Shown: positions 34,402-43,952 of the stretch, piece by piece
Numbering within the stretch: the stretch's first letter is position 1
How the letters are laid out: the number at the start of each line of letters is the position of its first letter
DNA from: Thainema sp.
GTDB taxonomy: Bacteria > Cyanobacteriota > Cyanobacteriia > Phormidesmidales > Phormidesmidaceae
Length of the DNA stretch: 64,000 nucleotides
NCBI GenBank assembly: GCA_052168235.1
Contig: JBQLZK010000002.1
Coordinates: 256,001-320,000 of the forward strand
Direction: 5' to 3'
Program-made: the position numbers and the translations under genes
The notes under the pieces: model-generated
What the model saw: the letters and a program-made list of their open reading frames with translations, nothing else
The model's database searches: none
What the model was told of the DNA's origin: nothing

Positions 34402-35223
34402 ATGAGTCCTTTGCCCACGTTCCGCTTCTCAACCGATTTGCTTGGTCATTACCGCTGGCTGAGTCAGCAGGACTTAACCGTTATCGATGTCGAAACTACG
34501 GGTTCGCGTCCGCCCCACCACCGCGTGATTGAGATCTCAGTTCTGCGCACCAATTTGCGAGACGGCATTCTGGATCAGCAAACCCACCTGCTTCAACCCG
34601 GTGTAGCCATCCCAGAACGAATTGTCCAGTTTACGGGCATTACCCCTGCCATGTTGACCAATGCCGCTACGCCGGAGCAGATTTGGCCTAGCTTATTGCC
34701 CTTGCTCTCCAATGGCATTCTTACGGCTCACAATATTCAGTTTGACTACAGCTTTTTGCAGGCCGAATATAGTCGGCTTCAACTGGCTTATCACCGTGAT
34801 GACGCTGATCTTTTTTGTACTGTACGCCTTGCTCGGCTGATGTTGGCTGATTTGCCTTCCCGCAGCTTGCCCGATCTCGTTCAACATTTCCAGTTCCCAA
34901 TTGCCAAATCCCATCGCGCTGCTGCTGACACGCTAGCCTGCTGGTACCTTGCACAGCACCTGCTCACCCGTATTCAGAACGACGATGAGCAGACCCTCTT
35001 GGACTGTATTGGGCAAGAATGGCTGCCGATTCAAATGGTTACGCCTCTGTTTGGCTGCTCTCGCCGTAGGGCAAAGGCCATGCTTGAAGCGGCTGGTGTG
35101 CCGACTCGATCTTCTCGTCGCCGCAAAGCGCCGATGTATCGGCGGCAGGATATTGAGCAGTTTTATTGGCAGCGGCAGGAGGGGCTGGCTGCGTCTGGGG
35201 AGGAGCAGTTGGTGGGAGGGTAG
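34402..35223 (+). CDS. DEDDh 3'-5' exonuclease (DnaQ-like) with a C-terminal HTH-like extension
   Basis: VIDVETTG, AHNIQFD and HRAAADT. Confidence 0.9.
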   Translation: MSPLPTFRFSTDLLGHYRWLSQQDLTVIDVETTGSRPPHHRVIEISVLRTNLRDGILDQQTHLLQPGVAIPERIVQFTGITPAMLTNAATPEQIWPSLLPLLSNGILTAHNIQFDYSFLQAEYSRLQLAYHRDDADLFCTVRLARLMLADLPSRSLPDLVQHFQFPIAKSHRAAADTLACWYLAQHLLTRIQNDDEQTLLDCIGQEWLPIQMVTPLFGCSRRRAKAMLEAAGVPTRSSRRRKAPMYRRQDIEQFYWQRQEGLAASGEEQLVGG

Positions 35224-35526
35224 GAGAGTGGGAGGAGGACAGGTTGGGAATGGGGTTGGAGGTGGATTAGGACGTTAAACGTTCACTTTTTATTTCTTGA
35301 TTGTCTAAAAATATTTAAAGAGGCGCTATAAGGTGGATGGGACTTAGGTTGTAAGTCCTTGTATGTGGTGCTTAATTTTTATAGGTTTTGTCTGTTCTCA
35401 TCTGAGGTTCGGTTAAAACCCGATGGTTTCTTTTCTGTGAAAGCTGGGCTGAACCAAGCTTTCACAGAAAAGAAATTGGGTTCTTATACACGGACTTGGA
35501 TATTTGCAGCAATGTTGAGGACGTTC

Positions 35527-35573
35527 TTGACATTGTGTATATTTAACACTTACACTTGGTGTATATTGAACAC
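35527..35573 (+). promoter_or_regulatory. Sigma70-type promoter overlapped by two tandem GTGT-N7-ACAC palindromes (NrtR-type operators)
   Basis: TTGACA at 35527-35532 and TACACT at 35551-35556; boxes at 35535-35549 and 35559-35573. Confidence 0.7.
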
Positions 35574-35580
35574 GAAGGCT

Positions 35581-36405
35581 ATGGATAACCAGTTTGAAAT
35601 TATTGGCGGTTCTGTTCTCGGATGGGAGCATCGGCGGATAGGCCGCAATAATCAAGATGCCTATCACTGGCTGGTGACTAAAGAGGTAATCGTGGCGCTG
35701 GTTTGTGATGGTTGCGGCAGTGGTGCCCATAGCGAAGTGGGAGCGAAGGTTGGGGCTCAGCTGGTAGCCCAGGCTTTTCTCTCGGTGTTGAAGCGGCTGA
35801 ATCCTGCTACCGAGGCGGAGTTTTGGATGCAGGTGCGGCAGATGGTGTTACTGCAGATTCATGATTGGATTTCGGCAATGGGCAGTGAATATCTGCACAC
35901 GTTGCGAGATTACTTTCTGTTCACGACTGTTGGGGCACTGATCACACCCGCGCAAACCTGGATCTTTTCCATTGGTGATGGTGCGATCGCACTGAATGGT
36001 GAACTCACTCCGCTTGGCCCTTTCCCAGACAATGCTCCGCCCTATTTGGCCTATGGTCTGATTCAAGACTATGTTGAAGGACTGACGCCGGAGGATTTGC
36101 GGTTTCAGGTGCATCATCAGGTTGCAACTGCCGAGGTGCAGTCAATTTTGCTCGGTACCGATGGCGTCTTGGACTTGGCGGCACTGGAAGATTCACGGCT
36201 GCCGGGGAAGGAGGAACGGGTTGGCCCGATTGCCCAGTTTTGGCAAGAAGACCGCTATTTCAAAAATCCACTCCGCGTCAGCCGCCAGCTAGCCATGATG
36301 AATTACGAGGCGGTGCAGGTGGACTGGGAGTCGCTCACGCTCAATCGGCGCGGCGGTTTGCTCCCGGACGATACGACGCTGATTGTGATTCGGCGTAAAG
36401 CTTAG
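35581..36405 (+). CDS. PP2C-like protein phosphatase (TerY-P triad type)
   Basis: NNQDA, VCDGCGSG, IGDG, GTDG and DDTT; start placed at MDNQFE, downstream of the promoter. Confidence 0.88.
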   Translation: MDNQFEIIGGSVLGWEHRRIGRNNQDAYHWLVTKEVIVALVCDGCGSGAHSEVGAKVGAQLVAQAFLSVLKRLNPATEAEFWMQVRQMVLLQIHDWISAMGSEYLHTLRDYFLFTTVGALITPAQTWIFSIGDGAIALNGELTPLGPFPDNAPPYLAYGLIQDYVEGLTPEDLRFQVHHQVATAEVQSILLGTDGVLDLAALEDSRLPGKEERVGPIAQFWQEDRYFKNPLRVSRQLAMMNYEAVQVDWESLTLNRRGGLLPDDTTLIVIRRKA

Positions 36406-36448
36406 AGATTATCCACCTCTCACCCATCCACCCCAAAAGGAGGTACCT

Positions 36449-37225
36449 ATGCTTGGTGCGATCGCAGGTGACTTAATTGGTTCTGTTTATGAATTTAATC
36501 CGATTAAAACGAAGGATTTTGAACTGTTTTCCCCTGGCTGTGGCATTACTGACGATTCCATTTTGACAATTGCGATCGCAGATGCCATTCTGCACGATGA
36601 CGATTATCAGGACAAGATTCAGTCTTATGCTCGCCGCTATCCGAATCCGACGGGTAGCTATGGAGCGCGGTTTTCGAAATGGATTTGGTTGGATGATCCG
36701 CAACCCTACAACAGTTGGGGCAATGGCTCGGCGATGCGGGTGAGTGCGGTTGGCTATGCGTTTGATGATTTGGATACGGTGCTGCATGAAGCGAAGCGAA
36801 CTGCGGTTGTGACGCACGATCATCCAGAGGGTATCAAGGGGGCGCAAGCGACGGCGGCGGCGGTGTTTCTGGGTCGCATGGGTCAGTCGAAGGCTGAGAT
36901 TAAAGCTTACATCGAGCAGACGTTTGGCTATGATTTGAGCCGTTCGCTGGATGAGATTCGCCCGACTTATGAGTTTAATGAGTCGTGTCAGAGGACGGTG
37001 CCGGAGGCGATGACGGCGTTTTTGGCATCAACGGATTTTGAGGATGCGATTCGGAATGCGGTGTCGCTGGGGGGGGATTGCGATACGTTGACCTGTATTA
37101 CGGGCGGTGTGGCGCAGGCGTTTTATGGTGGTGTGCCGGATGCGATCGCAACTCAGGTTTTAGGTTATCTGGATGATGATTTGAAGGAAGTTACCGTTAG
37201 GTTTATGGGGCGATTTTGCTCATAA
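36449..37225 (+). CDS. ADP-ribosylglycohydrolase (DraG/ARH family)
   Basis: GAIAGDLIG, TDDS, GNGSAMR and GGDCDT; AGGAGG RBS. Confidence 0.93.
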   Translation: MLGAIAGDLIGSVYEFNPIKTKDFELFSPGCGITDDSILTIAIADAILHDDDYQDKIQSYARRYPNPTGSYGARFSKWIWLDDPQPYNSWGNGSAMRVSAVGYAFDDLDTVLHEAKRTAVVTHDHPEGIKGAQATAAAVFLGRMGQSKAEIKAYIEQTFGYDLSRSLDEIRPTYEFNESCQRTVPEAMTAFLASTDFEDAIRNAVSLGGDCDTLTCITGGVAQAFYGGVPDAIATQVLGYLDDDLKEVTVRFMGRFCS

Positions 37226-37523
37226 GTTGCTCATAAAAACAACGTTGCTTCTGAGGGGACTAGCCCCCTCAGGCTCCCCCACTGGGGCATTCCGCTGCCC
37301 CAGACCCCGGCGGACGAGGTGATCGGTGGGTGGTGTGATGTCGCTTCGCATCGGTGGTGTCGTAAGGACGTTATTTGTTGTGTCTGGGCTTGGCGTGGAA
37401 CGCCAAGTAAGTGCAACACCTATAAGCTTGTCCCCCATTCTTCCTTTCTATCTCTACTGTCTCACTCTTCACTCCTCACGCCTCTCGCCTCACGCCTCAC
37501 GCCTCACTTCATCCCTAACTCCT

Positions 37524-39461
37524 ATGCTTTTCCTCAATCACAAAAAACTCACTCTCAAACCTCAGCAGCTTCTCGGCAAGGGTGGCGAGGCGGAGGTGTA
37601 TCGGCTGAATCGTCAGGTGGCGGTGAAGCTGTTTAAGCGGCCTGATCATGCGGATTTTCGGGGGCAGGTGCAGGAGCAGCAGGCGGCGCGGAATCGGATT
37701 GCGGTGCATCAGCAGAAGCTGCCGCTGTTTCCGGGGAATTTGCCGGAGCGGGTGGTGGTGCCGATGGATTGGGTGCGGGATGATCGGCAGCAGATTGTGG
37801 GCTACACGATGCGGTTGCTGACGGGGGTGGAGCCGCTGCTGCGATTTTGCGATCGCAATTTCCGGCAATCGATTCCGCATCAGCGGGTGGTGCAGATTTT
37901 TCAGGATTTGCACGATACGGTGTCGAAGCTGCATTTTGCGAGTGTGGTGATTGGCGATTTCAATGACCTGAATGTGCTGGTGCGGGGGACGGAGGCGTTT
38001 CTGATTGATGCGGATTCGTTTCAGTTTGAGCCGTTTACCTGCGGTATGTTTACGGCTCGGTTTGTCGATCCGCTGCTCTGCGATCCGCAGGCGAATCAGC
38101 CGCTCTTGCAGCGTCCTCACACGGAGCAGTCGGACTGGTATGCGTTTACGGTGATGCTGATGCAGTCGCTGCTGTTTGTTGATCCGTTTGGCGGTGTTTA
38201 CAAGCCCCAGGATGCGAGTCGGCGGGTGCCCCAGGCGGCGCGATCGCTGCATCGCATTACGGTGTTCCACCCGGAGGTGAAGTATCCCAAGCCTGCGCTG
38301 CCCTATGACCGTCTGCCGGATGAGCTGCTGCACTATTTTCAGTCAGTGTTTGAGCGCGATCAGCGGGGCGAGTTTCCCCGTCTGTTGCTCAATAGCCTGC
38401 ACTGGATAACTTGTTCTACCTGCGGCGCGGAACATGCGCGATCGCACTGTCCGGTCTGTGCCCAATCCCAACCGGGTGCGGTGGTTTCGGTCACTGTCGT
38501 GCGAGGTCAGGTAACGGCGACGCGCCTGCTGCAAACTGAGGGACTAATCCAGTTCGCCACTGTAGCCGCAGGCCAGTTGCAGTGGGTGCTGTGGCGGCAG
38601 GGACAGTTCCAGCGGGAGGACGGTTCCGTAATCATCACGGGTGATCTACAGCCCAATCTGCGCTGGCGAATTCAGGGCGATAAAACCCTGGTCGGTCAGG
38701 CGGGACAGGTGATGGTGTTGCAGTCCGGCCAAGTCGTACAGCGGTTGGCGGTAGATATTTACGGTGCGATCGCACAATTTGAAACCTTACCTGCTCACAC
38801 CCGCAGCACTCAGCCTTTATCTAGCGGTACATCCGAAGTCGCTGCCGTCTGGCTCCAGCAGGGGCAACTGTTACGCACTGACCGCTTAGGCGCAACCGTC
38901 ATGGGAACCGTCTTGCCCGAACGAACTCAAATCTGGTGCGGCTCCACCTTTGGCTTTGGCTTCTACCAGGCAGGCGATTTAACTGTCGCATTCGTCTTTG
39001 ATCTTGACCGTTCCGGCCTCAACGATCGCGTTCAACTGCCCACCTGGCGCGGTCAGCTCATCGCTGCTAACTGTGCCTTCGGTTCCGACTACTGCTGGCT
39101 GTTTTTGATCACACAGACACAAGGCCAACTCCAGCGCCACTGTACAATTATCCGCCGCGATGGTCAGGTTATAGGAAGTGCGATCGCAATTGACTCCACC
39201 CAGCCGAATCACTGGTTAATGCAGATCGGACAATCTGCCATTGCCCAAGACCCCTGCCCCTTCTGCCCGGTCTCTCGCTTCCTCCTAATCGCCACCGACG
39301 ACGGCATCATCCGCATCGAAGTCCACAACGGCCAGCTCACCCAAACCCGCACCTTCCCCGACACCGAACCCTTCGTCGATGCCAGCACCCAACTCCTCCC
39401 CGCTCCCGATGGTCTTTACGCGGTTCGGATGCATGATGTTCAGCATTTGAAGATGAATTAG
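37524..39461 (+). CDS. Ser/Thr kinase-fold protein (TerY-P triad type) with CxxC..CxxC zinc ribbon and beta-rich C-terminus
   Basis: GKGGEAEVY, VAVKLF, IGDFNDLNVLV, LIDADS and CSTC...CPVC; start placed at MLFLNH. Confidence 0.85.
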   Translation: MLFLNHKKLTLKPQQLLGKGGEAEVYRLNRQVAVKLFKRPDHADFRGQVQEQQAARNRIAVHQQKLPLFPGNLPERVVVPMDWVRDDRQQIVGYTMRLLTGVEPLLRFCDRNFRQSIPHQRVVQIFQDLHDTVSKLHFASVVIGDFNDLNVLVRGTEAFLIDADSFQFEPFTCGMFTARFVDPLLCDPQANQPLLQRPHTEQSDWYAFTVMLMQSLLFVDPFGGVYKPQDASRRVPQAARSLHRITVFHPEVKYPKPALPYDRLPDELLHYFQSVFERDQRGEFPRLLLNSLHWITCSTCGAEHARSHCPVCAQSQPGAVVSVTVVRGQVTATRLLQTEGLIQFATVAAGQLQWVLWRQGQFQREDGSVIITGDLQPNLRWRIQGDKTLVGQAGQVMVLQSGQVVQRLAVDIYGAIAQFETLPAHTRSTQPLSSGTSEVAAVWLQQGQLLRTDRLGATVMGTVLPERTQIWCGSTFGFGFYQAGDLTVAFVFDLDRSGLNDRVQLPTWRGQLIAANCAFGSDYCWLFLITQTQGQLQRHCTIIRRDGQVIGSAIAIDSTQPNHWLMQIGQSAIAQDPCPFCPVSRFLLIATDDGIIRIEVHNGQLTQTRTFPDTEPFVDASTQLLPAPDGLYAVRMHDVQHLKMN

Positions 39462-39462
39462 A

Positions 39463-39641
39463 AGGGGCTGTAAAGGCTGTAGAGGGCTGTAAAGGAGAGA
39501 AAGCCCGCAGCACGATGCTGGCAGGAAGGCAGATCCTCCTACTCCCTTGACTCCCTCTATACCTAGCAAACAAAAGCCATTCATCCCGATACGATTACCC
39601 CTGACTCCCTTTACAGCCTCTACAGCCTTTACAGCCCTTTT
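39463..39641. repeat. About 180-bp element with inverted ends built from GGCTGTA(A/G)A short tandem units
   Basis: GGGCTGTAAAGGCTGTAGAGGGCTGTAAAGG at left; CCTTTACAGCCTCTACAGCCTTTACAGCCC at right. Confidence 0.75.
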
Positions 39642-39682
39642 TCAAAATCTTACCCACCTTACCTACACGGAAACTTAACACC

Positions 39683-40723
39683 ATGACCACCCTCACCCAA
39701 CTTCCTATCCCCACCTTCTTTAACCTTCAAACCGTTGGCGAGGTCTGGCGCGTGCCTTACCAAGAGCGTGCCGCTCAGGCTAAAGACTGGAGCAAACAGC
39801 ACGGTCTCACCCCTGCGGCCAAGGACAAAACCCGCATCTGCCTGATGGCGATTGATGTGCAAAACACGTTCTGCATTCCCAACTTTGAACTGTTCGTCGG
39901 TGGCCGTTCCGGTATGGGCGCTGTGGAAGACAACATTCGGCTCTGCCAGTTCATCTACCGCAACCTGGGCATCCTCACCGAAATTGCACCCACGATGGAC
40001 ACCCATACGGCCATGCAGATCTTCCATGCCGAATTCTGGGTGAACGACGCAGGCGAGAATCCCGCCCCGATGACGATGATTCATGCCGATGATGTCAAAC
40101 AGGGCAAATGGAACGTCAATCCTGCGATCGCACATAGTCTCGCCCAAGGTAACTACATGGCGCTGCAAAACTATGCTTTGCACTACGTTGAGCAGCTAGA
40201 CACCGACGGCAAGTATCCCTTGACCATCTGGCCCTATCACTCGATGCTGGGCGGCATCGGTCACGCTCTGGTTTCCGCTGTGGAAGAAGCCTGCTTTTTT
40301 CACAACATCGCTCGCAGCAGCCAAACCAATTTTGAAATCAAAGGCGGCAATCCCCTGACTGAAAACTACTCCGTCCTCCGTCCTGAAGTGCTCGAAGATG
40401 CCAGCGGTCGCCCCATTGCCCAGAAAAACTCTCGCTTTATCCAAAAGCTGCTCGACTTTGATGCAGTTGCGATCGCAGGTCAAGCCAAAAGCCACTGTGT
40501 CGCCTGGACGATTCAAGATTTACTGGACGAAATCAACGCCAAAGACCCCACTCTCGCCAAAAAGGTTTACCTACTGGAAGACTGCTCATCCCCGGTCGTC
40601 GTCCCCGGCGTCGTAGATTTTACCGACCAAGCCGACCAAGCCTTCCAACGCTTCGCCAATGCCGGAATGCACCTCGTCAAATCCACCGACGACATCACCT
40701 CCTGGCCCAACCTGGATTTATAA
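39683..40723 (+). CDS. Isochorismatase-family cysteine hydrolase, nicotinamidase (PncA)-like
   Basis: IDVQNTF (Asp), TMDTH and WPYH (metal ligands), EIKG (Lys) and AKSHCV (Cys). Confidence 0.85.
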
Positions 40724-40726
40724 ACA

Positions 40727-40751
40727 AAAAGGTGGGCTATACCCACCTTTT
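40727..40751. terminator. Bidirectional terminator hairpin
   Basis: AAAAGGTGGG-ctata-CCCACCTTTT between convergent genes. Confidence 0.75.
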
Positions 40752-40772
40752 CAAAACTCTCAAAATTTCGGT

Positions 40773-41009
40773 CTATTCCGCTTGTTGGTCACTGTTTTCC
40801 CAGTTTTTCCATGCATGATACCCAAAACACAAACCCGCACCAAGGATTACAGGAGCAGCAAGTGGTACAGCAATAGTTGTTGTCGTAGTTAAACCAACCC
40901 ACCCCGCAACACCAGCCGCTGGTGATGTGATAGTTGCCACTGTTAGAGAACCTGGAATTGCACTAGCTGCAAGGGTTGCAAATTTACCAAACGAAGCAAA
41001 GTCTCCCAT
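40773..41009 (-). CDS. Small Gly/Ala-rich hydrophobic protein (78 aa)
   Basis: GAGG RBS; hydrophobic GxxxG-type segments. Confidence 0.65.
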   Translation of the reverse strand: MGDFASFGKFATLAASAIPGSLTVATITSPAAGVAGWVGLTTTTTIAVPLAAPVILGAGLCFGYHAWKNWENSDQQAE

Positions 41010-41021
41010 GTTCTTTACCTC

Positions 41022-41240
41022 TTAATTACCACTTGCTTTCTTAAGGCCAAATGCAGCTAAGCCAACTACAGCACCAGCCGCAGCGACAGGAGCCATACCA
41101 ACGCCTACTGCCGTACCTAAAGCAGCTATTCCTATGCCACCAGCCCAAGCTGAAAATCCAGCTCCTGCTGCTGCTCCAGCCGCTGCAAAAACAGCAGCTT
41201 CACGACCGTTTGAACCACCACTCTTGTCTCTATTTGCCAT
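41022..41240 (-). CDS. Small glycine-zipper membrane protein (72 aa)
   Basis: AAAGAAAGAG..AGGIGIAALGTAVGVG..AAGAVVGLAAFG. Confidence 0.7.
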   Translation of the reverse strand: MANRDKSGGSNGREAAVFAAAGAAAGAGFSAWAGGIGIAALGTAVGVGMAPVAAAGAVVGLAAFGLKKASGN

Positions 41241-41403
41241 GAGTTATCCCTTAGGTGAAAACATCACAAGTCTGCATCCTGAGAGGCTATGTAAAGAAAA
41301 GTGACAAGCTCTTTTTCGAAGCTAACACAGCTATTCTCTTGCCGTCATCGGTATCAGAACAAAGCAATGATTTTTTAGAATTTTTGTTGAGATCTTGGCA
41401 ACT

Positions 41404-41434
41404 GTAGGGTGCCGTTAGCGAAGCGTAACGCACC
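41404..41434. repeat. GTAG-type REP with GCGAAGC loop
   Basis: GTAGGGTGCCGTTA-GCGAAGCG-TAACGCACC. Confidence 0.75.
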
Positions 41435-41497
41435 GTTCCATCGAGCTTAACAGTGCACGTACATCTCACGACATGGATGTGTTGAATTATTTGAACG

Positions 41498-42004
41498 CTA
41501 ACCTTTACGGCGCTTATGCCCTCTAACAAATGTTCCATCCTTGCGACGGTACGAAGACACATCGGTGTACTGATCACCTAGCAATTTATTCTTTATGGCT
41601 TCTCCTCCAAGAGCCATACCTATGCCCCCCACAAATTTGGCCACTGTGAAAACTCCACCAGCTACCCCAGCCACTCCATCAGCAACACCTTTAGCTGCAT
41701 CAGCAGTACCACCAGCGACACCTTTTACAACGTTGGATGTGCTTTTGGCTATCGCATTGACCTTGCCAGATGGAGATCGTTTGTATTCTTCCAGTCGCCG
41801 CTGTTCTTCTTCAATTGCTCGCAGTCTTGCTTCTTCTGCTAATCGAATTTTTTCTAACTCTTGCTGGCGAAGCATTTCTGCTCTCCGTTTTCGAGCTTCA
41901 GCTTTCCTAATAAAACTTTTCAGTATCGAGTAGACAATGAAAAATATGCATGCACCCACAATCAGCGTTAAACCAACCAGTAAGACCAAAGAGGTAGTTT
42001 CCAT
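41498..42004 (-). CDS. Hypothetical protein: N-terminal TM, coiled coil, Gly-rich segment and basic C-terminal tail
   Basis: 168-aa ORF ending VSSYRRKDGTFVRGHKRRKG. Confidence 0.75.
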   Translation of the reverse strand: METTSLVLLVGLTLIVGACIFFIVYSILKSFIRKAEARKRRAEMLRQQELEKIRLAEEARLRAIEEEQRRLEEYKRSPSGKVNAIAKSTSNVVKGVAGGTADAAKGVADGVAGVAGGVFTVAKFVGGIGMALGGEAIKNKLLGDQYTDVSSYRRKDGTFVRGHKRRKG

Positions 42005-42163
42005 ACGATTGAGGAGAGATGAAGATTATATAAAACAGACTACCCAGAAAATTACGTAGCTGAACGGACTTTACGAGTATCTTTACAGATATATAACATG
42101 CCCTGTGGCAACGCTTATCCACAATGCGTCAATGAAAATCCGTTTTCACTTTGTACAAGCTCT

Positions 42164-42586
42164 ATGTCCACTCAAAAAATCACAATTGAGTTACCAGATT
42201 TACTGCTACAGCAGTTAAGGCGAGTAGCTGAAGTCACTCATCAATCTTTAGATGTTGTAATTACTCAAAGTTTATCGGGTAATCTTCCACCTTCTGTTGA
42301 TCATGTTGAAGTTGAGCAACAGGCTGAATTACTGACTATGCAAACATTTACGGTTGATCAACTACAAGCAATAGCTCATGCCACTATTCCAATTGATCAA
42401 CAGCATCGCCATGAGTTTTTACTCGAAAAGAATCAGCAATCAGCTCTTGCTGAAGATGAACGCCAAGAATTAACACAACTGAGGGCAAAAGTTGATCAGC
42501 TAATGCTCAAAAAAGCTTACGCCTGGGCAGTTTTAAAGTGGCGCGGAGAGCGAATTCCACCGTTAGAAGAAGTTGTCCCAGGATAA
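42164..42586 (+). CDS. Hypothetical antitoxin-like partner of the HNH gene
   Basis: ITIELPD RHH-like start and LKKAYAWAVLKWRG; abuts the HNH gene with no gap. Confidence 0.7.
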   Translation: MSTQKITIELPDLLLQQLRRVAEVTHQSLDVVITQSLSGNLPPSVDHVEVEQQAELLTMQTFTVDQLQAIAHATIPIDQQHRHEFLLEKNQQSALAEDERQELTQLRAKVDQLMLKKAYAWAVLKWRGERIPPLEEVVPG

Positions 42587-43003
42587 ATGAGTATTTCCGC
42601 AACTCTTCGTGCTCAAATGCAAGCTCAAGCAGATTATCGCTGTGAATACTGCAAAACTTCTTCTCGCTTAGTTGGTATGCCGTTAGTAATTGATCACATT
42701 CAACCTCAAGCGGAGGGAGGCAGCGATAATCCTGATAATTTGGCGGCTGCTTGTTATCGCTGTAATGAATTTAAAGGTGCCAAAACCTTTAGCGTTGATC
42801 CAGCTACTAATCAGCTAGCGAAATTATTCAATCCTCGCACTCAGCAATGGTCAGACCATTTTGCTTGGATTAACGGTGGTACGCACATTGCTGGGAACAC
42901 CCAAAGTGGCCGAGCGACGGTAATTGCACTACGGCTCAATAATGATCAAATTGTCTCAGCCCGCACTCTGTGGATTACAGTTGGCTGGCATCCACCTAGC
43001 TAA
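42587..43003 (+). CDS. HNH endonuclease
   Basis: CEYC, IDHIQP..EGG, NLAAACYRCNEFKG and LFNPR. Confidence 0.92.
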   Translation: MSISATLRAQMQAQADYRCEYCKTSSRLVGMPLVIDHIQPQAEGGSDNPDNLAAACYRCNEFKGAKTFSVDPATNQLAKLFNPRTQQWSDHFAWINGGTHIAGNTQSGRATVIALRLNNDQIVSARTLWITVGWHPPS

Positions 43004-43160
43004 AGCTTTCTAACCACAATACTTCAACTAATACAAAGTTTGTCGAGGCGATCGCAACTTTACTCGCCGTTACAAAAATGCGATCGCACTCACAGAATCC
43101 GTGTGTCTACTTTCACCATCAACCATCAACTATTAACCCTATTCCCAAAAGGTAACTACT

Positions 43161-43952
43161 ATGTCCCAATCCGCTAATCTCAATCAACTCTTCCAATCCG
43201 CCCACCAAGAAGGCTTACTCTCACCCGCCTCCATGCAGGCGCTCAACGTATTCGATATTGGTGCTCAGATTCAAGCTGGGCTGGGTGTTCACGTGGACGA
43301 TGTAATGTCTAGCGAAGTTGTCCTTGTCACCATCATGCCGGATGACTCTGGTTCAATTCGCTTTGGGGGCAATGCGGCCACGGTGCGGGCGGGGCACAAT
43401 ACGGTTTTGGATGCGCTGCAAAGTTCGCCTCAGAAAGACAGCATTCTGATTCACAATCGCTATTTGAACGGTACAGTCCTGTATCCGTACTGCGCGGTTG
43501 ACCAAGCGGTGCGAATGGATACTCAAAATTACGATCCAAATCAGGGAACTCCCTTATACGAACAAACCGTCGTGTTGCTGGGTACGGTGATTGCCAAAGC
43601 GCAGGAATTTGCCGACAATGGTGTGCCAGTCCGCACAGTAACGCTCATTATTACTGATGGGGCGGACGAGCATTCCGGTCGCACAACGGCGAAGCAGGTC
43701 AAATCTCTGGTGCAGGACATGCTGCGTTCTGAAAATCACATCATTGCGGCGATGGGCATTGATGATGGCCATACTGATTTTCGGCAGGTGTTTCAGTCGA
43801 TGGGGCTGCGGGATGAGTGGATTTTGACACCAGGGAATAGTCAGAAAGATATTCGGCAGGCATTCCAGATTTTTTCACAATCGGCAGTGCGCGCCAGCCA
43901 AAGTGCGGGTAGCTTCAGCCAAACTTCACTGGGTGGATTCGGTAATCCGTAA
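43161..43952 (+). CDS. vWA domain protein (TerY-like)
   Basis: MIDAS DDSGS, GTPLY and LIITDG. Confidence 0.85.
   Translation: MSQSANLNQLFQSAHQEGLLSPASMQALNVFDIGAQIQAGLGVHVDDVMSSEVVLVTIMPDDSGSIRFGGNAATVRAGHNTVLDALQSSPQKDSILIHNRYLNGTVLYPYCAVDQAVRMDTQNYDPNQGTPLYEQTVVLLGTVIAKAQEFADNGVPVRTVTLIITDGADEHSGRTTAKQVKSLVQDMLRSENHIIAAMGIDDGHTDFRQVFQSMGLRDEWILTPGNSQKDIRQAFQIFSQSAVRASQSAGSFSQTSLGGFGNP

Follow-up and report, generated by a model that had tools for sequence, protein, structure and literature searches.

The definition of TerY-P systems in the accessible part of PMC10542128 names three proteins: a von Willebrand factor A (vWA) protein, a PP2C-type phosphatase, and a kinase that carries a fused zinc ribbon at its C-terminus. 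YegI of Escherichia coli is an active kinase and is described as a two-pass membrane protein in the available text of a 2020 preprint, where its in vivo substrates were still unidentified (bioRxiv 10.1101/819920). NrtR regulons, as presented in the accessible text of Rodionov et al. (2008; PMC2330246), include nrtR-pncA-pncB operons and a cyanobacterial pncB-nadD-nrtR-nadE cluster; NrtR recognizes 21-bp palindromes built around GT-N7-AC, and ADP-ribose releases NrtR from DNA, as shown for the Synechocystis and Shewanella proteins. The ARG-centric systems of actinobacteria, planctomycetes and proteobacteria, which are predicted to act against viral ADP-ribosylation, have an ADP-ribosylglycohydrolase (ARG) as a fixed core beside variable effectors, evolve rapidly and carry repressors of either the Nudix-helix-turn-helix (Nudix-HTH, NrtR-like; a predicted ADP-ribose sensor) or the WYL type (Iyer et al., 2022; PMC9503650). 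In phages, the available parts of two reports describe the NAD+ pathways NARP1 (Adps and Namat), NARP2 (Nampt and Nmnat) and NARP3 (PnuC and a NadR-like enzyme) (PMC13464706; bioRxiv 10.1101/2024.02.11.579819). Here, these systems are compared with a five-gene locus of the cyanobacterium Thainema sp., which lies in a window of 64,000 nucleotides (assembly GCA_052168235.1, contig JBQLZK010000002.1, positions 256,001 to 320,000; positions below are those of the window). According to the listing of open reading frames (ORFs) and family scans, its genes are all on the plus strand and encode a PP2C phosphatase, an ADP-ribosylglycohydrolase (ARH), a kinase, a hydrolase resembling nicotinamidases and a vWA protein.

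The evidence described below indicates that the locus is probably a conserved NAD-recycling operon that belongs to the NrtR regulon, is induced by ADP-ribose and contains its own phospho-switch. The module is apparently undescribed: a search limited to openly accessible papers, without their supplements, turned up no account of a nicotinamidase coupled to a triad of vWA, PP2C and kinase under NrtR control.

Arrangement and Conservation of the Operon

All five genes listed in a first-pass annotation of the window, made from the sequence alone, are present and co-oriented, and their catalytic motifs are intact as judged by family scans and homologue alignments (Table 1). The arrangement recurs in other genomes. 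In a set of 41 related genomes, the window's own included, the kinase was found in 11, and the vWA protein was found strongly in the same 11 and as a single weak match (22% identity) elsewhere. Nine of the 10 other carriers have the PP2C, kinase, hydrolase and vWA genes in the same order, the tenth being a 5.8-kb contig with the kinase alone; an ARH gene is present in five of the nine contiguous loci. Outside the genus, the hydrolase and vWA proteins are 74%–81% identical to those of the window, and the kinase and PP2C 44%–57%.

A wider survey, in which the vWA alignment was searched against one genome per prokaryote species, yielded 383 loci. The best 80 were analyzed, and these are labeled nearly all as cyanobacteria. 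PP2C, kinase, hydrolase and vWA genes were all present in 53 of the 80, and two more contigs are cut before the PP2C gene. Flanks too short to judge account for 19 further loci, eight with hydrolase and vWA genes and 11 with the vWA gene only. Five loci have the hydrolase-vWA pair with at least 3 kb of upstream sequence and no kinase or PP2C, and one has the vWA gene without the hydrolase. A gene order shared by 53 of the 80 loci goes far beyond what chance would produce. Across cyanobacterial families the vWA proteins are 71%–84% and the hydrolases 72%–82% identical; the kinases, in an alignment of homologues, are 42%–60% identical.

The ARH gene behaves differently from the other members. 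Among the 53 full loci, 24 have no copy, 20 have one, eight have two and one has three. The hydrolase and vWA genes form the constant core of the module, and ARH is an accessory found in 29 of the 53. Thus, contrary to the first-pass annotation, ARH is not a fixed part. The PncA-like gene is always there beside the triad, so that the refuting condition set in that annotation, lack of conservation next to the triad, is not borne out for this gene. The nine loci with two or three tandem ARH paralogues, all lying between PP2C and kinase (L091, L092, L109, L111, L113, L114, L116, L120 and L125, with three copies in L111), come from eight genomes labeled Pseudanabaena, Pseudanabaenaceae or "cyanobacterium" and from one Phormidium tenue. 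In the survey, one kinase-hydrolase gap of ∼650 bp was inspected (L090) and contains an ORF of 110 residues. One locus (L123), from a metagenome-assembled genome labeled Planctomycetia, has the order PP2C-kinase-hydrolase-vWA and two operator boxes of the type described below; its hydrolase is 48% and its vWA protein 70% identical, it sits on a long branch of the hydrolase tree, and it may be a genuine non-cyanobacterial carrier.

Two gene starts were placed by conservation. The PP2C ORF extends from 35359 to 36405, and its conserved start is the ATG at 35581 (M75 of the ORF); the kinase ORF extends from 37326 to 39461, and its start at 37524 was placed from an alignment with 26 homologues.

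Table 1. Positions of the operon genes and associated features in the window
Feature	Positions	Strand	Evidence
PP2C-type Ser/Thr phosphatase, 274 residues	35581..36405	+	PF13672 6.8e-22, invariant motifs
ADP-ribosylglycohydrolase, 258 residues, ARH3/DraG family, accessory operon member	36449..37225	+	PF03747 4.1e-32
Ser/Thr kinase with zinc ribbon, 645 residues	37524..39461	+	Alignment, Pkinase, YegI profile match
Nicotinamidase-like cysteine hydrolase, 346 residues, constant core enzyme	39683..40723	+	Fold, profile, conserved residues
vWA protein, 263 residues, complete MIDAS, Ser-rich disordered C-terminal tail	43161..43952	+	Predicted fold, alignment
Promoter-like site TTGACA, 18 nt, TACACT	35527..35556	+	Consensus match 10/12, best of region
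Predicted NrtR-type operator 1, ATTGTGTATATTTAACACTTA, GTGT-N7-ACAC core	35532..35552		3 mismatches to TTAGTGT-N7-ACACTAA
Predicted NrtR-type operator 2, TTGGTGTATATTGAACACGAA, ends 5 nt before PP2C ATG	35556..35576		Palindrome match
Lineage-specific insert, ∼2.4 kb, outside the module	40724..43160		ORF listing, relatives' loci

Predicted NrtR Operators and the Regulator

An operator consensus, TTAGTGT-N7-ACACTAA, was derived from four intergenic regions between divergent nrtR and ARH(-hydrolase) genes at loci without the triad, and it fits the published 21-bp NrtR palindrome with its GT-N7-AC core. Allowing up to three mismatches, three matches were found in the window against 1.3 expected, and two of them are the tandem pair in front of the PP2C gene. 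The whole 7.5-Mb genome contains seven sites with a GTGT-N7-ACAC core and at most three mismatches, of which the operon pair makes up two; the box as defined here is almost confined to this operon in the window genome. The best promoter-like site in this region coincides in part with the tandem operators. Consensus matching alone found eight such sites where 8.3 were expected, so it is the overlap with the operators, not the match itself, that makes this site worth noting.

The same boxes stand at the PP2C start in all nine contiguous triad loci of the relatives, as perfect matches in three, and one locus (L015) has a second operator pair before the kinase. In one genome with scattered triad genes, the hydrolase and vWA genes are each under an operator of their own. 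The 80 surveyed loci (1,075,747 bases) contain 112 boxes, of which 98 stand at PP2C starts, eight at hydrolase starts, two at vWA starts and four elsewhere, with tandem boxes spaced 23–37 bp apart. Boxes at the PP2C start are present in 51 of the 53 full loci (two in 47, one in four) and missing from two. Each of the five hydrolase-vWA loci that lack kinase and PP2C has a box before the hydrolase, and the single vWA gene without a hydrolase also has one before it. Furthermore, of the 49 full loci whose flanks are long enough to judge, 40 have a divergent nrtR paralogue next to them. This neighborhood check, with NrtR-type operators in front and nrtR adjacent, strengthens the connection to NAD breakdown that the first-pass annotation had drawn from the gene content.

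The window genome has two NrtR genes, on contigs C10 and C52. The C52 copy directly follows pncB and nadD, and no nadE was found among the ORFs scanned beside it. The C10 protein is 60%–69% identical to the NrtRs linked to ARH-hydrolase pairs, the C52 copy ∼41%. The C10 protein scores 107.6 bits against PF21906, above the cut-off, and matches NCBIfam NF050029 at 7.9e-52 but below the curated cut-off. By these comparisons, the operon's regulator is predicted to be the second NrtR paralogue, that of C10, which is encoded away from the operon in this genome. The presence of the regulator and of 21-bp palindromic predicted operators in the promoter region would make the operon a member of the NrtR regulon.

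The Nicotinamidase-like Hydrolase

The hydrolase has at least 8,000 relatives in a 90%-identity cluster database, named "isochorismatase" or "nicotinamidase-related amidase" by their sources, and 2,370 among 50%-identity cluster representatives. In an alignment of 47 hydrolases, the Asp-Lys-Cys triad (D58, K220 and C272) and the Asp-x-His...His site (D106, H108 and H186) are invariant or at least 90% conserved, with D106 and H108 at least 90% and H186 invariant. The last three residues, which we take to be the metal ligands, align with DWH and WPVHC in yeast Pnc1. An Asp-x-His...His metal site is typical of nicotinamidases and is regarded as setting them apart from other members of the family.

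A search of the PDB with the single sequence gave nothing meaningful. The hydrolase profile, in turn, matched nicotinamidases best (2h0r, 4.2e-6; 3pl1, 2e-5; 2wt9, 2.3e-5), and eight of its 13 matches, including the best four, are nicotinamidases or pyrazinamidases. The AlphaFold model of the hydrolase has a mean pLDDT of 96.7, and the first 17 Foldseek matches listed for it (ranks 1–22) are all nicotinamidases or pyrazinamidases, the best at 8.5e-13. Some distant members of the hydrolase family match PF00857 (8.7e-11). The enzyme thus appears to be nicotinamidase-like, with a predicted isochorismatase-like fold in which the catalytic triad and the metal site are present. The window genome encodes pncB and nadD on contig C52, and its five canonical PF00857 (isochorismatase-family) proteins are BiuH-, RutB- or YcaC-like, none reaching the PncA cut-off. 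Because these five fall far below that cut-off, the 346-residue enzyme is the best candidate to feed PncB.

Hydrolase genes are also found away from the triad. At 19 hydrolase loci without an adjacent triad, an ARH gene lies directly upstream and co-oriented in five (L027, L029, L032, L033 and L034), and L031 has an ARH fragment. In L029, L032, L033 and L034, the ARH-hydrolase pair has a divergent NrtR gene (PF21906 plus NUDIX) beside it, and in L025 such a gene lies 2.5 kb upstream of the hydrolase; in L038, a divergent pncB adjoins the hydrolase. Eight of the 19 have an operator box upstream of the hydrolase or ARH gene. The hydrolase is a widespread cyanobacterial gene tied to NAD genes, and the ARH-hydrolase pair is independent of the triad. 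In a quick hydrolase tree, the triad-linked copies cluster, with 13 label changes against 28.6 in shuffles, and the tree largely follows taxonomy; with 44 of its 93 inner branches lacking resolution, it is compatible with one or several origins. The duplicates L046, L061, L063 and L090 and tblastn matches shorter than 300 residues were left out of the tree.

Two triad-bearing genomes have a second, divergent hydrolase copy at 63%–66% identity (L037, 6930–7958; L042, 3957–4985). These copies lie beside LOG/SLOG-type (PF03641 and PF18306), PIN-PhoH and FHA/double-zinc-ribbon proteins, and no NrtR box was found at either. A further group of hydrolases, of 525–614 residues (P0121, P0123, P0127, P0133, P0134, P0139 and P0159), is fused to a conserved N-terminal domain of ∼190–260 residues without a Pfam family, which might reveal another partner of the enzyme. 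The idea that this domain is a vWA domain, and the fusion a Rosetta stone, was rejected when BLASTP against the vWA protein gave E ∼3.

The Kinase, PP2C, vWA and ARH Proteins

The residues expected of each protein family are conserved among homologues of the four remaining proteins. The PP2C motifs NNQD, DG, DG and DDT are invariant in 21 sequences, as are the ARH motifs GD..E, DD and GGDxDT in 20; the best solved relatives of ARH are ARH3 proteins (9.5e-15). The kinase is made up of a catalytic domain (residues ∼1–290), a zinc ribbon (C297, C300, C309 and C312) and a C-terminal domain of ∼330 residues, and its GG motif, K35, D145, N150, D162, D164 and the four zinc-ribbon cysteines are invariant in 27 sequences. 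Taken alone, the window kinase matches Pkinase weakly (E 0.0037), and 14 of the 27 family members match, at best with 2.2e-8. A profile of the 27 kinases found in the PDB weak matches to Nop10 zinc ribbons and generic kinases alone.

The vWA protein has invariant metal-ion-dependent adhesion site (MIDAS) residues in 35 sequences (D61, S63, S65, T130 and D166). Pfam gave no match at E ≤ 0.01 and NCBIfam no meaningful one, nor did single-sequence and profile searches of the PDB return anything meaningful. However, the predicted model (pLDDT 81.8) has integrin I and von Willebrand A domains as its top Foldseek matches (2.3e-5, probability 1.0). The C-terminal tail, residues 238–263, is conserved, Ser-rich and disordered, with pLDDT below 50 from residue 249. 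Because Pfam and NCBIfam recognize neither protein, the identities of the hydrolase and the vWA protein rest on predicted folds, joined for the hydrolase by the profile search; on these and on the conserved residues, both names given in the first-pass annotation hold.

Kinship to the E. coli triad is clearest for the kinase. In hhalign, kinase and zinc ribbon align with YegI over residues 13–321 (probability 97.8%, E 8e-13) and PP2C aligns with PphC (probability 87%, E 3.7e-6), and the match of the vWA protein to YegL is weak (probability 31%). In tblastn searches of plasmid records, the N-terminal half of the kinase (residues 7–313) found matches at 23%–26% identity, two of which were inspected and sit in annotated VWA-PP2C-kinase triads, one of Sinorhizobium and one the E. 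coli yegL-pphC-yegI set; the vWA protein found no match there. In a Sinorhizobium meliloti plasmid (L133, 1–2489), the related VWA-PP2C-kinase triad follows hxsB, hxsC and hxsA (His-Xaa-Ser radical-SAM) and precedes a gene for an SH3-domain protein. With a predicted MIDAS-bearing vWA protein, a PP2C and a kinase-zinc ribbon protein in one conserved neighborhood, the module is, by sequence and model, of the TerY-P type, in agreement with the first-pass annotation and with the homology to YegI and PphC. No ter gene was found among the 15 window ORFs scanned around the operon, and the sole nuclease-type gene is an HNH gene in the insert. The kinase has a zinc ribbon and no recognized OB fold of the kind present in the Gao-type TerY-P anti-phage module. 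Complex prediction for hydrolase and vWA protein gave a score of 0.00 in both runs, which carries no weight either way.

The Cassette in Viral-Classed Contigs

When the vWA alignment was searched against IMG/VR, eight viral-classed contigs of 42–318 kb were found, about six of them distinct since there are two near-copy pairs. Kinase, hydrolase and vWA genes are in the same order in all eight, and PP2C is present in six; in L135 the contig stops 245 bp before the kinase, which leaves any PP2C gene out of view, and L139 has no PP2C match. Forty-nine flanking ORFs from six of these loci were scanned. In L139 and L140 the gene immediately before the cassette is pncB, and in L137 the cassette is flanked by NAD synthase (nadE) and an adenylyltransferase-like gene. 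Other, phage-like neighbors include RNA ligase, PIF1 helicase, an intein-bearing ribonucleotide reductase and DUF5131. Much of the conflict between bacteria and phages is fought over NAD+ depletion, and the cassette would be relevant to that field if its presence in large phages holds.

Proposed Mechanism and Alternative Explanations

What is established concerns the families only: ADP-ribose acts on NrtR, ARH3-type enzymes set ADP-ribose free, and the product of PncA goes to PncB. Applying these facts to the present proteins is our extrapolation. At rest, the C10 NrtR paralogue would occupy the two operators over the promoter and keep the operon off, a binding expected from comparative genomics. 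Upon cleavage of NAD+, free ADP-ribose would release NrtR, as has been shown for other NrtR proteins. The nicotinamidase-like enzyme, judging from its fold, residues and gene context, would then convert nicotinamide to nicotinate, which enters the PncB-NadD-NadE route. Where present, ARH may strip ADP-ribose from proteins or from O-acetyl-ADP-ribose, and so both repair targets and supply inducer. The vWA/kinase/PP2C triad could gate either the enzyme or its vWA partner through reversible phosphorylation on Ser/Thr, and, as a guess, the likeliest target of the kinase would be the Ser-rich tail of the vWA protein.

The last step can be stated more narrowly: the triad would be a dedicated post-translational gate on the nicotinamidase, setting the flux of nicotinamide salvage during NAD+ breakdown. 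This proposal is tentative, clearly more so than the operon as a whole. Nicotinamidase is treated as a simple, constitutively acting bacterial salvage enzyme. If the proposal is true, it would give a triad of the TerY-P/YegI-PphC-YegL type its first physiological substrate and purpose, it would be the first phospho-control of bacterial NAD salvage, and NAD+ recycling would be switched at two levels, by an ADP-ribose-sensing repressor and by a kinase/phosphatase/vWA set.

Several observations weigh against an NAD-recycling operon with a phospho-switch. The hydrolase is present in 36 of the 41 related genomes and the triad in 11, so that most cyanobacteria run the hydrolase without the switch. 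The survey was seeded with the vWA protein and measures what accompanies it, not kinase or PP2C genes that occur without it. In the window genome, nrtR is not adjacent to the operon. There, the 2.4-kb insert, with ORFs on the opposite strand, also cuts the vWA gene off from the other genes, and no operator stands before that gene, which makes its co-regulation in this genome uncertain. The C-terminal 330 residues of the kinase have no recognizable fold and no relative in the protein-atlas search. Curated models do not recognize the hydrolase (no Pfam match at E ≤ 0.01, no NCBIfam match at E ≤ 0.1), and its 346 residues compare with ∼180–235 in most solved nicotinamidases, 9u8m with 327 being longer. 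Finally, operator, inducer, nicotinamidase activity and phosphorylation target are, all four, predictions.

A first alternative, which we consider unlikely, is a conflict (immune) system induced by ADP-ribose after a phage or toxin ADP-ribosyltransferase or NADase has acted. On this reading, a cyanobacterial relative of the ARG-centric systems would use ARH to take off the modification, the vWA protein to chaperone proteins that carry it, and kinase and PP2C for signaling. Three elements predicted in ARG systems, namely a Nudix-HTH repressor, a coupled phosphatase and a vWA "chaperone" (Iyer et al., 2022; PMC9503650), are found here, and TerY-P-like modules have been reported to protect against phages on their own (Gao 2020, cited in the accessible part of PMC10542128). 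The patchiness of the triad (11 of 41 relatives), an ARH copy number that varies from 0 to 3 and the occurrence of the cassette in viral-classed contigs would also suit such a role. However, ARH, the core of ARG systems, is absent from the 24 full loci noted above, and the PP2C lies outside the four phosphatase types of PMC9503650 (rhodanese-phosphatase, calcineurin-like, HD and HAD). Where rapid evolution is a hallmark of such systems, the vWA protein and hydrolase remain 71%–84% identical across families. The module has no nuclease or other effector as a constant member, and the flanks differ between genomes, those of the window being housekeeping genes (msrB, aroE and sensor kinases). PADLOC holds TerY-P models, yet none of its families fits PP2C, ARH, hydrolase or vWA: it gave nothing for vWA and ARH, a single match for PP2C (RmrT, E 0.045) and weak generic matches for the kinase (PD-T4-6, 9e-6), and no match carries a TerY-type name. 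The phage or toxin trigger put forward in the first-pass annotation thus finds no support, given the PADLOC result, the slow evolution and the missing effector.

Somewhat less likely still is that the hydrolase is not a nicotinamidase and acts on another amide of ADP-ribose/NAD turnover or on a protein-linked group, with the triad as its regulator. The missing family placement, the length and a large insertion mean that its substrate could differ: relative to solved nicotinamidases the enzyme has an insertion of ∼60 residues and an N-terminal extension, and the TM-score normalized to the query is 0.43–0.50. Further down the Foldseek list are cysteine hydrolases that share the fold but are not nicotinamidases (maleamate amidase, carbamoylsarcosine amidase, RutB and BiuH, at 5e-7 to 1e-5), and the fused forms with an extra N-terminal domain of 190–260 residues point the same way. 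These features have to be set against the 17 leading fold matches listed and the eight of 13 profile matches, all of them nicotinamidases or pyrazinamidases, and against the conserved Asp-x-His...His metal site. Adjacency to pncB, nadE and nrtR points to nicotinamide, and the genome has a pncB gene but no canonical PncA.

It is highly improbable that an ordinary TerY-P-type triad merely landed beside unrelated NAD genes, as the interleaved window genes, the junction broken by a mobile-looking insert and the repeat-bearing gaps of 298 bp (ARH-kinase) and 221 bp (kinase-hydrolase) might suggest, given that the order recurs in 53 of 80 loci from many cyanobacterial families and, for kinase, hydrolase and vWA, in all eight viral-classed contigs, that operators stand at the operon start in 51 of the 53 full loci, that the 11 genomes (of 41) with the kinase are exactly those with the vWA protein, and that kinase identities of 42%–60% argue against one recently spread element.

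The Insert, Repeats and Flanking Genes

The insert between hydrolase and vWA genes, already noted in the first-pass annotation, was recovered and, among the 10 relatives' loci, is found in the same-genus genome only. Its minus-strand ORFs are at 40773–41009 and 41022–41240 (both small and Gly/Ala-rich) and at 41498–42004 (a membrane ORF of 168 residues). On the plus strand, an ORF of 162 residues (42098–42586) is followed by an HNH endonuclease gene (42587–43003; PF01844, 7.5e-13), which also has weak PtuB and IscB-HNH matches. The hydrolase-vWA spacer attracts insertions, with 0.3–1.9 kb of other DNA there in other genomes.

Three metatranscriptome runs of one study contain contigs of a relative at ∼92% identity, for which DNA carry-over is possible. 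A contig of 2,073 nt covers the kinase, and one of 4,355 nt extends from the hydrolase across the HNH pair and into the vWA gene. PP2C and most of ARH are uncovered, and given possible DNA carry-over neither a transcript unit nor silence follows from this. In the contigs of this relative, 1,405 bases (40709–42113) are replaced by 1,310 others, and the pair of 162-residue ORF and HNH gene is retained.

Several repeats were observed in and around the operon. Upstream of the promoter there is a hairpin with 22-nt arms (35427–35475), and before the kinase three overlapping copies of a CTCACGC-type repeat with a 14-nt period (37461–37509). In the kinase-hydrolase gap, a 24-nt inverted repeat (39462–39485 with 39617–39640) encloses 131 nt and has the look of a miniature element. 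Stretches at or next to the intergenic repeats, and at ∼43113–43138, have very high depth in many unrelated metatranscriptome contigs, which marks the intergenic repeat stretches as dispersed repeats. Within the operon genes (35972–40484), repeats centered on GCGATCGC, presumably the cyanobacterial HIP1 palindrome, occur many times.

Just upstream of the operon, a plus-strand gene (34402–35223) encodes a DEDDh (RNase T-like) exonuclease, with matches to PADLOC PDC-S48 (6.2e-37) and CRISPR-associated DEDDh (1.3e-32). It is not conserved beside the operon in the relatives' loci.

Comparison with Known Systems

Analogous to YegL-PphC(YegK)-YegI, the module has a vWA protein, a PP2C and a zinc-ribbon kinase, and the kinases are nearly equal in length (645 versus 646 residues). 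The C-terminal half of the present kinase, however, does not align with YegI. The gene order also differs, being PP2C-[ARH]-kinase-hydrolase-vWA here and vWA-PP2C-kinase in TerY-P and YegL-PphC-YegI. In contrast to those triads, a nicotinamidase-like gene is always embedded, and NrtR-type operators stand in front.

Like NARP1–3, the cassette is a compact gene set that would rebuild NAD+ from breakdown products or precursors, and it is present in viral-classed contigs. It differs from the NARPs as described, for which the accessible text mentions no Preiss-Handler route (nicotinamidase/PncB) and no vWA protein; the terms "nicotinamidase," "PncA" and "vWA" are absent from the main text of PMC13464706. 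If the large viral-classed contigs are phages, the cassette could be a fourth, Preiss-Handler-based route for rebuilding NAD+ during infection.

The likeness to NrtR regulons is twofold: a gene for a Nudix-winged helix-turn-helix regulator lies beside its target, with a 21-bp GT-N7-AC palindrome over or just after the promoter, and the target is a nicotinamide-salvage enzyme, here a predicted one. The nrtR1-draG pairing of Streptomyces, described in the available text of PMC2330246, parallels the divergent nrtR and ARH-hydrolase pairs seen here. Unlike in the present operon, the cyanobacterial regulons tabulated in the accessible part of that paper contain no pncA, kinase, phosphatase or vWA gene, and the regulator is a second paralogue, ∼41% identical to the NrtR linked to pncB and nadD.

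The terms "isochorismatase," "nicotinamidase," "PncA" and "PP2C" are absent from the main text of PMC9503650, and in contrast to the ARG-centric systems, ARG is optional here, the fixed core consists of the nicotinamidase-like enzyme and the vWA protein, the phosphatase is a PP2C with a kinase as its partner, and evolution is slow. Nevertheless, as in those systems (Iyer et al., 2022; PMC9503650), an ADP-ribosylglycohydrolase, a Nudix-HTH protein, a phosphatase and a vWA protein share one neighborhood, and the logic proposed for both is the same, that is, induction by released ADP-ribose.

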